IMG/VR virus record: IMGVR_UViG_3300026302_000005
Span: 273,301-337,300 of that record
DNA from: a virus
Lineage: Duplodnaviria > Heunggongvirae > Uroviricota > Caudoviricetes
Strand: one strand, 5' to 3'
DNA length: 64,000 bases
The number at the start of each line of letters is the position of its first letter. The stretch's first letter is position 1. The position numbers and the translations under genes were made by a program. Under the pieces are notes generated by a model. It did not search any database and had not been told where the DNA came from. It saw only the letters and a list, made by a program, of their open reading frames with translations. This document shows, one piece after another, positions 27,727 through 40,119 of the stretch.

Positions 27727-27803
27727 TGGCGGCTCCGGTGGGACTCGAACCCACGACCAACAGTTTTAGAGACCGCTGCTCTAACCAACTGAGCTACGGA
27801 GCC
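27727..27803 (-). tRNA. amber suppressor tRNA (anticodon CTA, reads UAG); Trp-like body (loop CTCTAAA versus E. coli tRNA-Trp CTCCAAA; discriminator G)
   Basis: Acceptor GGCTCCG/CGGAGCC, D-arm GCTC-AGTTGGTTA-GAGC, anticodon stem GCGGT/ACTGT, T-arm GTGGG-TTCGAGT-CCCAC. Confidence 0.7.
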
Positions 27804-33651: not shown

Positions 33652-34152
33652 TCAGGTTGGGTTGCTTATCGCATGTGGTTCAGCATTCGTCAATGGCAAG
33701 TCGTAGACCACTACATGACGATCTTTCATTGCGAACTCAATGATCTGGGAGATAGTTTTCCAATCACCCCCACCCAGGGACGATCCGATCCGAGGAATCG
33801 CCACAACCGGGATGTCATGATAGTCGTCATCGATATTCTCTGTGATCCAGTCGTAGACTTGAACAAAGATCGATTCGATTCCCTGGTAGCTCACATACTG
33901 TTTGCCATCACGACCGAACCACTCCTGGGACACCGCATTGGCGATGAACTTCCCCTTGGTTGGCACCCAGACGATCTGCCCGACACGGAGACCGGATAGC
34001 TCGTATGCGGCCCGATATCCGGCATATGCTTCGGGGTAGACTTCACGAATGGCCTTCGCCACCCCCGAGCCCATCACGCCCTGAGCGTTGCAGCCGTGAA
34101 GGATGATGGGTTCATCAGCGACCATGAGATCGCCCGTTTTGTAGATCAACAC
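33652..34152 (-). CDS. macro-domain protein (ADP-ribose binding / O-acetyl-ADP-ribose deacetylase-like)
   Basis: Motif ILHGCNAQGVMGSGVAKAI. The probable start is a TTG at 34152. Confidence 0.65.
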   Translation of the reverse strand: MLIYKTGDLMVADEPIILHGCNAQGVMGSGVAKAIREVYPEAYAGYRAAYELSGLRVGQIVWVPTKGKFIANAVSQEWFGRDGKQYVSYQGIESIFVQVYDWITENIDDDYHDIPVVAIPRIGSSLGGGDWKTISQIIEFAMKDRHVVVYDLPLTNAEPHAISNPT

Positions 34153-35219: not shown

Positions 35220-36194
35220 CTAGATGCCCTTTTTGATAAGCCGCTCGAACTCTCGAAGCCGCTTGTAAACGGAGATCAATTCGACAATCGTCGGCCACGA
35301 TTTCACCAGAAACTGCAAGCTGGTTTCGACCCGACCGAATGCACGAACGATCTGTTGAACCACACCCAGTGTAACCAGTCCACCGGCGATGGTAGGTGCC
35401 AGAGCCAGATATGGGACGATCACCATACCTTGGAAGTATGACCAACGAAACATGTTGAAATACATGTAGTGGAAGTAGGATCGGTAGTGAACCTTGCGGA
35501 CACGATCATATAGGTCCGTTAGCACGGGTTTGTCGATCATGATGGGATCATTCTCGGCCAACACCAGCCGCTTTCGATATGCAGCCTCTTCCTTTTGAAT
35601 GTCATACTCGATGCCAGGGAGCTTATAGCCCACGATGGCCAGCGCAATGGTGCCACCCAGTGCTGCAATGATCGCCACCCACACCAGACCGTGGGATACC
35701 TCTCCCACCCATGGAAGCATGGTAACGCTCTTGGACAATTCCCATAGAATCGGGACGAAGGCCACAAGGGTCAGGATGGCATCCAACAGACCAACACCCA
35801 GGCTTTCCATGATCCTGGCAAACTTCAAGGTGTCTTCCTGAACTCGCTGCGATGCCCCCTCGATGGTTCGAGCTTTCCCGTAGTGTTCGTGGTAGTATTC
35901 GGTCATACTGGTGCGCCACCGGAAAATCCAGTGGGACGTGAAGAAGTCTTTGGCAACCGAGATGACCACCCATAGCCCAGCTATACCAGCGAATGTGAAC
36001 AGCAAACTGATGAACTCGGCTTCGGTAACCGATCCAGGTTCAGTCAGAGCCTTCTGTAGGACGTCGTAGAAGGAACCAAACCACTCGTTGATCTGGACGT
36101 CAAGCTGAACCATCCACCAGGATGCGATGATGATCACCCCAGTCCCCATGATACTCCAGGGTAGCCACTTACGGGTATAGAAAAATCTGAACAT
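35220..36194 (-). CDS. sbmA: SbmA/BacA-family inner-membrane peptide transporter homolog
   Basis: Blocks RWRTSMTEYY, EGASQRVQEDTLKFA, AAYRKRLV and FHYMYFN match E. coli SbmA (recalled from memory). Confidence 0.65.
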   Translation of the reverse strand: MFRFFYTRKWLPWSIMGTGVIIIASWWMVQLDVQINEWFGSFYDVLQKALTEPGSVTEAEFISLLFTFAGIAGLWVVISVAKDFFTSHWIFRWRTSMTEYYHEHYGKARTIEGASQRVQEDTLKFARIMESLGVGLLDAILTLVAFVPILWELSKSVTMLPWVGEVSHGLVWVAIIAALGGTIALAIVGYKLPGIEYDIQKEEAAYRKRLVLAENDPIMIDKPVLTDLYDRVRKVHYRSYFHYMYFNMFRWSYFQGMVIVPYLALAPTIAGGLVTLGVVQQIVRAFGRVETSLQFLVKSWPTIVELISVYKRLREFERLIKKGI

Positions 36195-36253: not shown

Positions 36254-36796
36254 TCAGGTGTTCCGGTCGTAGTGACTGGCCCTGACTTGCTCAGGTCGAA
36301 TGACTATCGCCGCTTTTGGGAGATGAATCAGGACCTCATGTTCTACAATCCCAGACATGATATCACCCTCGCTGTCGTCATGATACTCAGCGGGTAGGTC
36401 TGGGAAGTAGAACAACACGTTCGCGGCTGGAAAATGCGATTCTATGATGATCGTTGGTAGACCATCACCTATGGTGTCGCCATAGAAATACTCCACCATG
36501 TCTTCATTGGTAGACCACGATGACACCAACCCGGTTTCATACCGGATTGGGCGTTTCTGTTCGATCAGTGTCACCCAATCCTGCTCGGGTATCGCAGTAG
36601 AACGGTATACCGTTCCTATTGAGGTCCGGACCATGCTTTTCAGTTCAGGGGCATGCTGTAGTAGAAAGTCTGTCAGAAACTTTTTGGTTCCGTCCACCCT
36701 AGCAGATGGTCGCATGGTGGACCACCTATGCAGCATATTGAGAAGATCACTTTGTGATTCCCAATCTACCCGCTCTACCAGATCACGAAGTTTCAT
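36254..36796 (-). CDS. hypothetical protein
   Basis: ORF. Confidence 0.4.
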   Translation of the reverse strand: MKLRDLVERVDWESQSDLLNMLHRWSTMRPSARVDGTKKFLTDFLLQHAPELKSMVRTSIGTVYRSTAIPEQDWVTLIEQKRPIRYETGLVSSWSTNEDMVEYFYGDTIGDGLPTIIIESHFPAANVLFYFPDLPAEYHDDSEGDIMSGIVEHEVLIHLPKAAIVIRPEQVRASHYDRNT

Positions 36797-37475
36797 TCCA
36801 CAACTCGTCCATGAAGCCTTTCATGTATTTACTGGCCGTCATGGTGCGGTTCGTGCCATGATGCTGAACTCGATCATCTTGGAATCGAATCGTCACAGTC
36901 TTATCACCACGCATTCCCGAGCCGACCTGAGCCTTGCGATCCGCAGCCATGTCCGCGTGTTGTGCGCCCTCTGCCATGCCATCCAGGCGGGCTTCCAGGG
37001 CCTCACGAGCCTCACGATAGCTGGTATCACGGGAACGGGTCTGACGGGCCTCCAGGAGCCCCGTGGGGACGTGTGTGAGCCTACAACTGTTCTGGTGCTT
37101 GTTCCGGTGTTGTCCACCAGCACCGGAGCCGCTGAACCATTCAACCTGGAAGTCAGAATCTTCGCGACAAAGATATGCGGGGTCAACCTGGCGATCTGGG
37201 TCAAGAACAGCAACGATGACCGTGCTGGTATGGACGCGACCGCGACGTTCGGTTGGGGGAACTCGTTGGATGCGATGGCCACCGGCAGCATACTCCAACC
37301 CAGATAGATCATCACCGATTACGGTAATCCGGATTCCGTGCTGGCCGTTATCCTCGGTTAGGTGTAGTCACCCATAGCGCACCGCCATGCGGCGATAGGC
37401 TTGTGCAAGGTCCTGCACAAACAGTTGGCTGTCTTTTCCACCTTCGGCGGATTTGATCTCAATGATCTTTTTCAT
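36783..37475 (-). CDS. prfH: RF-H (PrfH)-like peptide chain release factor homolog lacking RF domain 1; in-frame TGA at codon 36 (37368..37370) aligned to a conserved Trp of RF1
   Basis: GGQ motif (SGSGAGGQHRNK). PxT-type motif (GGHRIQRVPPTE). The upstream segment MKKIIEIKSAEGGKDSQLFVQDLAQAYRRMAVRYG-[TGA]-LHLTEDNGQHG aligns with RF1 [34 protein letters not shown]. RBS GGAGA upstream of ATG 37475. Confidence 0.6.
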
Positions 37476-37661
37476 GATCTTTTCTCCAAGGGGCTCGAAG
37501 GTGGGGCATATCCCAAATCGAGCGAATGCGTTGAACCCGGCCCCCACGTCGCACCAGCAACAGGGGACCTAGTATTTCGTCACGAGTGATGATTGGCATC
37601 CAGGATATGATACGAATCAGGTGTTCATCATCCTGGAGGAACCATCGACGAAATCGCATGG

Positions 37662-37994
37662 TCAACCCTCGGTTTGGGTGTCACTGATGGATGCGTTCTT
37701 GGCCTCTTCCAGAACCTTGGCGGTCTGTTCAACCACCTGCGTAGCCCAACCCGGCTGACGAAGCAACATGACAAGGCCCAGCATCAACAGATGTCCGTCC
37801 GTCAGTGGGGCATCATCGGGTAGGATCGGGGTCACAATCTGAACCTGATTGTCGTCTTTGATGACCAACGCATAGGCATTGGACAAATCGACCAATCCTG
37901 GGTTCATGGCCTCCGGTTCGGCGGAGTCGTAATTGTCATTCATGATGGTGTTCCTTTCAGAACATGAGTTAGGAGATGGGGTAATAAATGTCAA
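37662..37994 (-). CDS. hypothetical protein
   Basis: ORF. Confidence 0.35.
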   Translation of the reverse strand: MTFITPSPNSCSERNTIMNDNYDSAEPEAMNPGLVDLSNAYALVIKDDNQVQIVTPILPDDAPLTDGHLLMLGLVMLLRQPGWATQVVEQTAKVLEEAKNASISDTQTEG

Positions 37995-38000
37995 CCGTAG

Positions 38001-38780
38001 TCAGAACAAATCTGGTAGTTCTCGGCTACTACTATCGGGACGGTATGGATCGGTGAATACAACAGTGTTGCCCCGAAGCATATAGTTGCCACCATGGAGG
38101 TCCAGACGGATATCCCCACCACGGATTGGATACCGGATAATCCGATACATGATGGATACCAGATCAGCCGGGGCAATCCCTCGGAACCGTTCCTGGAAGT
38201 AATCCTCGTCGGCACCCCACACATCCTGGATGGCCATCTGAACTTCCCATACAGCGTCATTGGCGGCATCGTTCCCAAATGCAGGTTTGAGTCGTTCCAT
38301 CCGAACTGCCATGGCAGGAATACCGGTCTTCGGTTCCAGGTCCACCGGGCGTCCAACAAACCGTGGTAGATACTTGTTCGGACCCTGACGATCACAGAAA
38401 TCCAGGAAGGTGCGATATCCGATGTCGTCTTTAGCAAACACCTTGAGCACATAATCCATCTTCGGATGGGCAAACACCTTGGCGTATTGTCCTTCACGGC
38501 CAAGCCGTTGAAAACCTAGCTGGTTCAAATAGGTGGTGATCGGCTGGGATTGAGAATCATTGCGGAACCCATCACCAACGTGGGTCAGAGCAGACTTTGC
38601 ACCGGTGAGTTCATTCAGTTTCATGATCGTATTTAGGATCGTCATCCGGCAGTGGGATATCTGGCACCGGACGTAACTCCATGATGTCGTGGTAGAAGAC
38701 GGACCGACGGATAAGCTTGTCCTCATACGTCTGCAACATGGCCAAAACGCGATTGAGAGCATGCCACTGCCCTCGTTCAA
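38001..38780 (-). CDS. protein kinase-like fold protein (start uncertain; probably internal, near 38624-38645)
   Basis: Lys-containing strand YAKVFAHPKMDYVLKVF and a catalytic-loop-like LDLHGGN. Confidence 0.35.
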   Translation of the reverse strand: MNEGSGMLSIAFWPCCRRMRTSLSVGPSSTTTSWSYVRCQISHCRMTILNTIMKLNELTGAKSALTHVGDGFRNDSQSQPITTYLNQLGFQRLGREGQYAKVFAHPKMDYVLKVFAKDDIGYRTFLDFCDRQGPNKYLPRFVGRPVDLEPKTGIPAMAVRMERLKPAFGNDAANDAVWEVQMAIQDVWGADEDYFQERFRGIAPADLVSIMYRIIRYPIRGGDIRLDLHGGNYMLRGNTVVFTDPYRPDSSSRELPDLF

Positions 38781-39372: not shown

Positions 39373-40119
39373 TCAATCGTATGTCATACCAAGAAACTGA
39401 AAAATCTGGGTCAAATCCCCACGATAGTTTTCCAGGTCACCGGTTTGACCGGATCGGTTGTCCATGATGTAGGTGGTGTTTCCGGGCTCGGTAATGATGG
39501 ATTTGAACATCTCACTGGGAACACACACAGAATCGCCAATCAGTGTCGGGTTTTTGTTGAGGATAGCACCGGTCACAATGTAGGTCGGAGCTTCTTCGCG
39601 ATCCGCCACTATCGACCGGGCCAGAAACTCTAACCGACGCCATATGCCCCGGTTGAACCCTGGGTTCTGTGGGACCACGTTGCTGAGATAGAATGTCTGG
39701 AGCATGCTTACGCTATCCTCCATCATGTCCCCGGCTGGAACCATATGTCCGCGATCATATCCAGAACCACGGTAGTCGGATGGAGTTGATGCATGATCCT
39801 GGAGCAATCCCGGATCGACCCGGAATACGTCGGTGCGTGGCTCTATTCCATCGACCTCACTGGCCACCAGGTTTTCAAACGTCAAGATCGGTATTTTGCA
39901 GCGAGTGTCATAGATGATCGCGTAGTTGATACGACAGATCGTGATCAACCCCTCTCGATCAGACATCAGTTCAAACGGGAAGAACTGCGGACACCGACTC
40001 TGCTGTAGCCCATCGTAGTAGTTGGGGATGTCCGTGTAAACGGGGTTCTCAATGTATTCGGCCCTGACACCGATGGGTGTCAGGGCCAACAACAAGGCAA
40101 GGATCGCTCTGATGATCAC
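39373..40119 (-). CDS. secreted DNA/RNA non-specific endonuclease (NucA / Serratia nuclease family)
   Basis: Signal peptide MIIRAILALLLALTPIGVRA. Catalytic DRGHMVP motif. Confidence 0.7.
   Translation of the reverse strand: MIIRAILALLLALTPIGVRAEYIENPVYTDIPNYYDGLQQSRCPQFFPFELMSDREGLITICRINYAIIYDTRCKIPILTFENLVASEVDGIEPRTDVFRVDPGLLQDHASTPSDYRGSGYDRGHMVPAGDMMEDSVSMLQTFYLSNVVPQNPGFNRGIWRRLEFLARSIVADREEAPTYIVTGAILNKNPTLIGDSVCVPSEMFKSIITEPGNTTYIMDNRSGQTGDLENYRGDLTQIFQFLGMTYD

Follow-up and report, generated by a model that had tools for sequence, protein, structure and literature searches.

How can a phage make a release factor from a gene that is itself interrupted by a stop codon, and does the interruption serve a purpose? 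We examined such a gene in a 64,000-nucleotide (nt) stretch of DNA (the window: positions 273,301 to 337,300 of IMG/VR virus record IMGVR_UViG_3300026302_000005), which is part of the ~376-kb genome of a very large phage (metagenomic contig, 375,937 bp). The gene resembles that for release factor 1 (RF1), and its codon 36 is an in-frame TGA at a position where RF1 has Trp. Nearly every member of its family carries the same TGA at the same codon, the codons ahead of it evolve as coding sequence, and a sister clade has a +1 frameshift cassette at the equivalent place. We propose, with a probability of roughly 0.6, programmed readthrough of the UGA as Trp, which would couple synthesis of the encoded factor, here termed mini-RF1, to the efficiency of termination by release factor 2 (RF2).

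An in-frame UGA at codon 36 of a release-factor gene

An initial reading of the DNA alone, without database searches (the sequence-only reading), had described a ribosome-binding site and an ATG followed by a TGA and then by continuation in the same frame. This arrangement was confirmed on the minus strand, where the gene and its landmarks occupy the following window positions.

37484..37487, minus strand: Shine-Dalgarno element GGAG, 8 nt upstream of the ATG, read from the sequence
37475..36783, minus strand: the whole mini-RF gene, with its start codon ATG at 37475..37473
37371..37475, minus strand: first open reading frame (ORF) segment, 35 codons, MKKIIEIKSAEGGKDSQLFVQDLAQAYRRMAVRYG, the start of RF1 domain 2
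37368..37370, minus strand: in-frame TGA in the context GGG TGA C, at the conserved RF1 Trp position; proposed readthrough site
36786..37367, minus strand: second ORF segment, 194 in-frame codons that encode the remainder of domain 2 together with domains 3 and 4
37251..37259, minus strand: PPT tripeptide (PxT, the RF1-type "anticodon" motif) in GGHRIQRVPPTERRGRVHTS, from the translation
37110..37118, minus strand: GGQ catalytic motif (SGAGGQHRNK), from the translation; the plus strand reads ttgtccacc
36783..36785, minus strand: terminal TGA of the gene, overlapping the next gene, whose ATG is at 36796..36794

The conceptual translation consists of MKKIIEIKSAEGGKDSQLFVQDLAQAYRRMAVRYG, the internal stop, and a continuation that begins with LHLTEDNGQHG, passes through GGHRIQRVPPTE (a stretch that also contains the PPT) and then the GGQ, and ends in NETS before the terminal stop. 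With the internal TGA read as Trp, the product has 230 residues. Because the in-frame UGA interrupts the gene at codon 36, full-length mini-RF1 requires that it be bypassed. The first segment includes the α5-tip region (AEGGKD), which in RF1 reads the first base of the stop codon, and GGAG or AGGAG elements precede the ATG in homologous loci as well. On the opposite strand, an antisense ORF (36498-37307, plus strand) runs for 269 codons without a stop, its conservation being a by-product.

The predicted product is an RF1-type factor without domain 1

The protein read through the TGA matched two Pfam models above their cutoffs, PCRF (residues 4-88, 65.9 bits) and RF-1 (residues 106-206, 54.8 bits). 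It also aligned with the NCBIfam prfA model (TIGR00019/NF001859) at model positions 115-344 of 361 with 165.8 bits, a score far under the equivalog cutoff of 423.25 because nothing in the protein corresponds to the first ~110 model positions. These represent domain 1 (about 105 residues in RF1), which is absent from the window protein, and the upstream ORF (37662..37994) had no Pfam match. PHROGs held no dedicated family; the best match there was a full-length RF1-like profile, aligned over positions 111-338 of 355. The Pfam and prfA alignments bear out the earlier claims that the gene carries GGQ and RF1-like PxT motifs without domain 1 and that the 35 codons upstream of the TGA, aligned from residue 4 onward and bearing a coding signature (see below), are true release-factor sequence.

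Comparison with solved structures placed the internal stop precisely. In phmmer searches, RF1 chains from T. maritima (1rq0/2fvo) and E. coli (5o2r) were colinear with the window protein over residues 2-225, and the Trp of these chains aligned exactly on the TGA; this assignment, also made from the sequence alone, is further borne out by a lineage of the family (P0074) that has TGG at the same codon. An AlphaFold2 model of P0003, a homolog 62% identical to the window protein, had a mean predicted local distance difference test score of 90.5 and superposed over its whole length on ribosome-bound RF1 with template-modeling (TM) scores of 0.86-0.89 and root mean square deviations of 2.3-3.3 Å. 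The PxT tripeptide stands in the RF1 context GGHRxQRVPxTE (GGHRIQRVPPTERRGRVHTS in the window protein). The family alignment shows no variation at P74, T75, and E76 or at G120 and G121 of the GGQ (residues 120-122), and almost none at Q122. The prfB model gave 77 bits, versus 166 bits with prfA. By the tripeptide rule, PxT predicts specificity for UAA and UAG and not for UGA, and RF1 deprived of domain 1 retains release in vitro and loses the contacts used by RF3. Mini-RF1 would presumably have canonical release activity at UAA and UAG.

The sequence-only reading had labeled the gene RF-H/PrfH-like, and this label was not sustained. PrfH, the partner of RtcB in a ribosome-repair pair, resembles mini-RF1 in being a class I release-factor homolog of about 200-230 residues without domain 1. 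Unlike PrfH, however, mini-RF1 keeps the PxT motif, and the PrfH model (TIGR03072) aligned with residues 105-192 only, at 38.8 bits versus a cutoff of 166.65 (and versus 166 bits with prfA). The PrfH structure 9mor matched the window protein with E=1.6e-4 and was ranked 50th among the fold matches of the P0003 model (TM 0.68, 21% identity), the fold being nearer to RF1. No RtcB gene or domain was found among the window neighbors or within 10 kb on either side of the gene in a close relative (L001). Membership in PrfH/RF-H was ruled out on these grounds. We conclude that the predicted product is a phage mini-RF1, that is, a class I RF1-type factor with domains 2-4 and without domain 1.

The TGA is conserved at the Trp codon across divergent genes

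To place the interruption in context, homologs were collected from IMG/VR viral contigs (three scans with family queries), JGI metagenomes, GTDB species genomes, and PLSDB plasmids, and the scans plus the first loci yielded 177 distinct gene sequences of the window-type mini-RF family. TGA stood at the Trp codon in 174 of them, and neither TAA nor TAG was ever seen there. Counted by locus, the same TGA codon was found in 84/84 of the first loci and in 158/160 once the second scan was included; the two exceptions belong to the TGG lineage. One further gene (L197) reads TGG-GCG-TGA, with an in-frame TGA two codons later, and the interruption persists; the P0074 lineage is the only one with an uninterrupted TGG. 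W36 is invariant in the family alignment. The surroundings of the TGA are similarly constrained: a Gly codon (GGN) directly precedes it in 171 of the 174 genes, the base 3′ of it is A in 124, G in 34, C in 16, and T in none, and 81 of 85 homologs have an N-terminal segment of 35 codons.

This conservation spans loci with G+C contents of 29-68% and proteins with about 50% amino-acid identity. Four loci on contigs of 154-263 kb, 58-77% identical, have the same TGA at the same codon. The family is found on phage contigs, in metagenomes, and, in standard-code Proteobacteria, on prophages and megaplasmids. The interrupted gene is present in isolate genomes of the Alphaproteobacteria Thalassospira xianhensis, Jiella sp., and Gemmobacter caeni and also on a Bosea megaplasmid. 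Among phage records, megablast of the region gave no match, and tblastn matches were all below 40% identity.

The 34 codons before the TGA are under protein-coding purifying selection in the frame that enters the stop. Among 60 representatives with <80% nucleotide identity to each other around the site, identity over these codons was 0.68, 0.78, and 0.39 at codon positions 1, 2, and 3, respectively, versus 0.29 in noncoding flanks. A lone in-frame stop in one contig would normally suggest a pseudogene or a sequencing or assembly error in which TGG was misread as TGA, and gene callers do split or truncate the gene. The comparative data refute this explanation, to which we assign a negligible probability: the TGA recurs in independent, divergent genes, both halves of the gene are under purifying selection, and apart from the TGA the gene is free of further stops or frameshifts. 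Because 174 of 177 distinct genes share the codon and the upstream segment is conserved as coding sequence, the TGA is not a product of chance, error, or pseudogene decay. The view, expressed in the sequence-only reading, that expression of the gene depends on decoding of the UGA is likewise supported, with Trp as the most likely residue.

The terminators of the family genes show a preference of their own. The gene ends in TAA in 79 of 85 homologs, and among the 60 representatives TAA terminated 57, versus 57% of neighboring genes (p=6e-11, uncorrected for phylogeny). Such a preference would be expected if the gene were translated while termination at UGA is unreliable.

Protein databases convey a different picture of the family. 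The nearest database proteins are called as fragments of 156-193 residues with differing starts after the Trp position, and P0001, the product of the window's downstream ORF, appears as a call truncated to 171 amino acids. Public sets also hold many "full-length" members of 222-233 residues with W at the site; in the one that was checked (P0003), the W came from a gene caller that used code 4 on a short contig, and the DNA has TGA. For the plasmid of Bosea sp. RAC05 (L296 3995-4627), the gene table has an antisense "hypothetical protein" alone and no release-factor (RF) gene, and a Variovorax copy was split into two coding sequences by the annotation pipeline PGAP. The apparent majority of uninterrupted members in protein databases is likely to be largely a gene-caller artifact; with code-4 translation of such entries, the recoding would be missed by protein-level surveys.

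Related mini-RFs carry other forms of recoding

A Variovorax megaplasmid copy, 37% identical, has its TGA about ten residues further on. A search from this copy identified 46 more IMG/VR loci that encode PxT-type factors without domain 1 and that carry GGHRWQRVPPTE. Among the 46, three have a TGA at the second site, three at the Trp site, and two have two in-frame TGAs, while in 34 the first ~37 codons end in CTT-stop and the remainder of the gene lies in the +1 frame. Most of these 34 have GGAGG(G)GT three nt upstream, as in CGGAGGGGT CTT TGA C. This is the architecture of the prfB frameshift site (a Shine-Dalgarno-like element, CTT-stop, and a +1 shift), often with the same sequence elements, at the equivalent place in the gene, and the analogy to prfB autoregulation drawn in the sequence-only reading proved apt. 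The stop in the cassette is TGA in 23 cases, TAG in nine, and TAA in two. When conceptually shifted, the sister proteins were colinear with RF1 domains 2-4 and scored 209-235 bits with prfA versus 130-158 bits with prfB.

The frameshift sister clade corresponds to IMG/VR loci L305-L343 (e.g., L318, L321, L310, and L306), and we found no published description of it. The second-site TGA (in the context G, stop, LNLE), again after GGC, occurs in L297 (Variovorax plasmids) and L298-L300, and the two in-frame TGAs of L303 and L309 are eight codons apart. Within the window's own family, a Hahella sp. metagenome-assembled genome (MAG; L171:5001-5260, JANQMN010000065.1) has TGG at the Trp codon and, six codons past it, reads TCT CTT TAG CCC and then continues in the +1 frame. 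This site may be a prfB-like cassette on an RF1-specific stop; it comes from a single MAG, so that an indel error could account for it, and IMG/VR and the JGI metagenomes yielded no close relative. Because the sister clade has a +1 cassette at the same place, phage mini-RF genes as a rule require recoding near codon 36, and at least three mechanisms for it are represented among them.

Recoding is specific to the gene within the sequence examined

Recoding of a single UGA could also be one visible part of a phage-driven change of code, in which UGA generally becomes Trp late, through a suppressor tRNA encoded elsewhere or a UGA-reading variant of tRNA-Trp(CCA), with the RF1-type factor as a part of, or checkpoint for, the switch. 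We examined code usage in the 64-kb window and in 10 kb on either side of the RF gene in other loci; late genes elsewhere could differ. Conserved neighboring genes in the loci end in TAA (390), TGA (230), and TAG (61) (n=681; TGA 34%), and the window genes end in TGA (10), TAA (4), and TAG (4) (n=18). ARAGORN, run on the window and on related loci around the RF gene, found no UCA anticodon among the 28 window tRNA genes or among 954 tRNA genes in related loci.

Readthrough elsewhere was surveyed by comparing all sequences with one another, with TGA left open. A six-frame comparison of the window with the loci was at first swamped by off-frame and antisense matches of close relatives and became usable once only the best frame per region was kept. 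In the resulting 2.27 million aligned residues, the RF site was the only TGA spanned in >4 loci, and the few other spanned TGAs were tRNA genes, gene ends, or off-frame matches. In the window genes, a codon-usage scan of every in-frame stop, together with inspection, revealed no further in-frame TGA or TAG. Candidates at TGA 49224 and 26396 and at TAG 52636, 28971, 24529, 24914, and 21813 were rejected as adjacent same-frame genes or noncoding sequence. ORF lengths in the window under alternative codes did not discriminate between codes. Recoding is thus gene-specific and not genome-wide, as far as the sequence seen allows, and the possibility of UGA as a genome-wide Trp codon, which arose from the sequence-only reading, is contradicted in the window and loci, where no other in-frame TGA was conserved.

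A code change does have points in its favor. A switch of this kind was suggested for gut phages with recoded TGA (Borges et al., 10.1101/2021.08.26.457843), and TAA is the preferred terminator of the RF gene. Many relatives also have tRNA-Trp(CCA) genes near the RF gene, with features tied to UGA reading elsewhere. One such feature is the Hirsh-type D arm (U11:A24). Among 24 distinct phage tRNA-Trp(CCA) sequences (L012-L083 and L169), 17 had U11:A24 and nine had a mismatched 27:43 pair, leaving a 4-bp anticodon stem; these features are not counted as evidence here. A short anticodon stem has been linked to UGA reading in other systems (PMC13092985). Against a code change stand the frequent use of TGA as a terminator in the neighbors and the window, the lack of a second conserved in-frame TGA and of UCA anticodons in the surveys above, and the copies in prophages and megaplasmids of standard-code bacteria. 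Moreover, genes for the code change are themselves in standard code in the gut phages (Borges et al., 10.1101/2021.08.26.457843), and frameshifting in the sister clade would be left unexplained. We regard a change of the whole code as unlikely.

RNA structure around the UGA

Two further interpretations of the UGA bear on the RNA that follows it: that it encodes selenocysteine, UGA being the codon for this residue, or that the gene yields two separate polypeptides by termination and reinitiation. Some subgroups do have a hairpin a few nt 3′ of the UGA. In a subgroup with longer inserts, hairpins of -16 to -26 kcal/mol begin 5-10 nt after the TGA and show compensatory changes (CGCGTC/GACGCG, CGCATC/GATGCG, and CACGTC/GACGTG). 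A consensus-derived hairpin from 6 nt after the TGA was 68.7% paired, versus 62% in shuffles, a modest degree of support. Across the family, the 48 nt that follow the TGA showed more structure than did the remainder of the gene (mean z -0.61, p=2e-4), with other regions dipping as low.

These hairpins are conserved neither in place nor in sequence and are absent in the window; RNAalifold gave no family-wide consensus structure, and the region had no Rfam or selenocysteine insertion sequence (SECIS) match. RF1 has Trp at this position, and one lineage has TGG, which also argues against selenocysteine. As for two polypeptides, there is no conserved start after the UGA, and callers pick different downstream starts in each relative. 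Both interpretations are very improbable. A 3′ stimulator of readthrough in the window's gene is likewise not supported.

Proposed readthrough switch and its weighing against fixed attenuation

In bacteria, UGA is recognized by RF2 only, and it is the leakiest stop codon, Trp being the residue inserted. Termination is weakened when A or C follows the stop codon and when Gly precedes it, and a non-U 3′ context together with Gly favors UGA leakiness in E. coli. We propose that near-cognate tRNA-Trp(CCA) decodes the UGA at codon 36 and so restores the Trp of RF1, and that competition between RF2 and tRNA-Trp at this codon would set the yield of mini-RF1. Efficient termination by RF2 would give little mini-RF1, and limiting RF2 or abundant tRNA-Trp would give more; because UGA is read by RF2 only, the yield should fall as RF2 efficiency rises and should rise with the supply of tRNA-Trp. 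In many relatives, a tRNA-Trp gene of their own lies near the RF gene. The UGA would then serve as a gate or sensor early in translation and would be the readthrough equivalent of the frameshift switch in prfB. Control of this kind would be cross-regulation rather than autoregulation, the gate codon being read by the other release factor, and a plausible purpose would be extra termination capacity at UAA and UAG once RF2 becomes limiting during phage takeover.

The regulatory part of this scheme draws support from the sister clade because its cassette is of the type known to respond to release-factor levels. The role as a sensor or switch, raised in the sequence-only reading, is well motivated by such comparative evidence; a regulatory purpose, Trp insertion, and dependence on RF2 are inferences.

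Several observations weigh against the proposed switch. The sequence examined represents 64 kb of a 376-kb genome, and a UGA suppressor tRNA elsewhere is possible. The window's gene itself ends in TGA, unlike most relatives. It has no unusual structure 3′ of the UGA (z +0.81), and no hairpin is family-wide. A PxT factor should not read UGA, so no simple autoregulation is expected and the adaptive logic is speculative. Finally, the sister clade uses TGA, TAG, and TAA (23/9/2) in its shift cassette, and with all three stops in use, sensing of termination capacity or the setting of a low yield would fit better than a strict RF2 sensor.

The use of three stops in the frameshift clade, together with the mismatch between PxT and UGA, leaves room for a plain fixed attenuator, in which the UGA would limit synthesis of a potentially harmful factor to a few percent of initiations, with no response to a signal. 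The three stops argue against a strictly RF2-specific signal, the window's gene has no stimulatory structure, and in B. subtilis, overproduction of RF2 is strongly toxic and that of RF1 mildly so (PMC12421855). However, a weak ribosome-binding site or promoter would suffice for this end without discarding a 35-residue peptide. The recoding site is also kept at one early position in hundreds of divergent genes and in three forms, which suggests that competition at the stop codon matters, and the prfB cassette, of which the sister clade has a copy, is an established switch responsive to release factors (PMC5009743). Fixed attenuation is doubtful, although it is the least improbable of the alternatives considered here.

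Programmed readthrough coupled to RF2 remains our preferred reading, and it can be extended. Tentatively, and at somewhat less than even odds, we suggest that phage mini-RF1 genes are a widespread family of translational sensors and that the window holds the first natural readthrough-gated release-factor gene. Mini-RF1 would be made only when host RF2 lags at UGA and would then take over termination at UAA and UAG, so that the phage monitors and rebalances the termination capacity of its host. The readthrough, second-site or double-UGA, and CUU-stop frameshift forms would be interchangeable ways of solving a single sensing problem.

Genomic neighborhood, tRNA genes, and tmRNA genes

The window contains 28 tRNA genes between 5587 and 56708, all on the minus strand and in several clusters. 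The set includes duplicated His, Asn, Tyr, and Met tRNAs and five Leu isoacceptors. One gene (27727-27803, minus strand; labeled "Pyl" by ARAGORN) has a CUA anticodon, that of an amber suppressor, and its anticodon arm and G73 are like those of tRNA-Trp. CUA-anticodon tRNAs also lie near the RF gene in L001, L005, L052, L055, L067, and L078, and in L055 the gene adjoins one for a UUA-anticodon tRNA. An RF1-type factor would compete with the CUA tRNA for UAG; the window genes have no in-frame TAG.

Genes for transfer-messenger RNA (tmRNA) adjoin mini-RF1 or lie a few kb from it in L005, L052, L055, L067, L074, and L078, in most of these 0.5-1.3 kb downstream of the mini-RF gene. Mini-RF1 and tmRNA may form a small module for termination and ribosome rescue. 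The protein-coding neighbors at 35220-36194, 33652-34152, 38001-38780, and 39373-40119, all on the minus strand, include an SbmA/BacA-like inner-membrane transporter (439 bits), a Macro-domain protein, a kinase-like protein (PHROG 15752), and a secreted nonspecific endonuclease; their order is kept in the relative L001.

Relation to known recoding systems

In prfB, as in the window, an early in-frame UGA must be bypassed, and the yield depends on competition with termination. The two differ in mechanism, site, and control. The window reads GGG TGA CTA in frame 0 with no CUU codon, which points to readthrough and not to a frameshift. Its site lies in domain 2 at codon 36, whereas that of prfB lies in domain 1 at codon 26, and its product is predicted to be RF1-type (PxT), so that control would come from RF2 and not from the product itself.

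The closest readthrough parallel is the A1 protein of coliphage Q-beta, in which a leaky UGA is read by normal tRNA-Trp at a few percent to give an in-frame extension. As proposed for the window, the UGA is leaky, tRNA-Trp is involved, and the longer product is in frame; in both, the 3′ neighbor is not U. In Q-beta, however, the coat gene truly ends at the UGA and the extension is C-terminal, whereas the UGA of the window lies inside a conserved domain, where the short product is presumably useless.

Among release-factor genes, readthrough of an in-frame UGA, an idea put forward decades ago and long considered, had not been found in any RF2 gene, and no RF1/UAG counterpart was known (Atkins et al. 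2016, PMC5009743). Bacterial prfA showed no programmed recoding in a survey from 2025 (PMC12421855), and all CUU-stop +1 sites in RECODE are bacterial prfB (PMC10274946). According to a citation in PMC5009743, a giant amoeba virus has a release-factor gene that needs readthrough plus frameshifting. It shares with the window a virus-encoded release factor that requires recoding of stop codons, but it is a eukaryotic-type eRF1 of a eukaryotic virus, with unrelated sequence and different signals.

Phage release-factor genes as such are not new. Huge phages carry RF1 and RF2 genes and tmRNAs (Al-Shayeb et al., PMC7162821), and RF1 genes occur in two TGA-recoded gut phages (Borges et al., 10.1101/2021.08.26.457843). 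Like the window's gene, these are RF1 or RF2 genes that stand amid tRNA and tmRNA genes in large genomes. The factors of the recoded phages are described as being in standard code and free of internal stops, whereas the window family conserves an internal UGA and its neighbors use TGA as a stop. A full-text literature search returned no description of recoding in phage release-factor genes.

Recoding as a means of controlling release-factor synthesis is textbook knowledge, yet bacterial prfB is the only known case. What is new here is a phage-borne family of RF1-type factors, with ~175 distinct genes and hundreds of public loci, in which early recoding is obligatory. For annotation, the family matters because current pipelines shorten or split these genes, apply code 4 to them, or call a gene on the antisense strand instead. 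It would provide a testable system in which competition between RF2 and tRNA-Trp is the signal, and it is of interest for the study of both recoding and phage takeover of translation. The family suggests that large phages tune termination in their hosts, besides the supply of tRNA.

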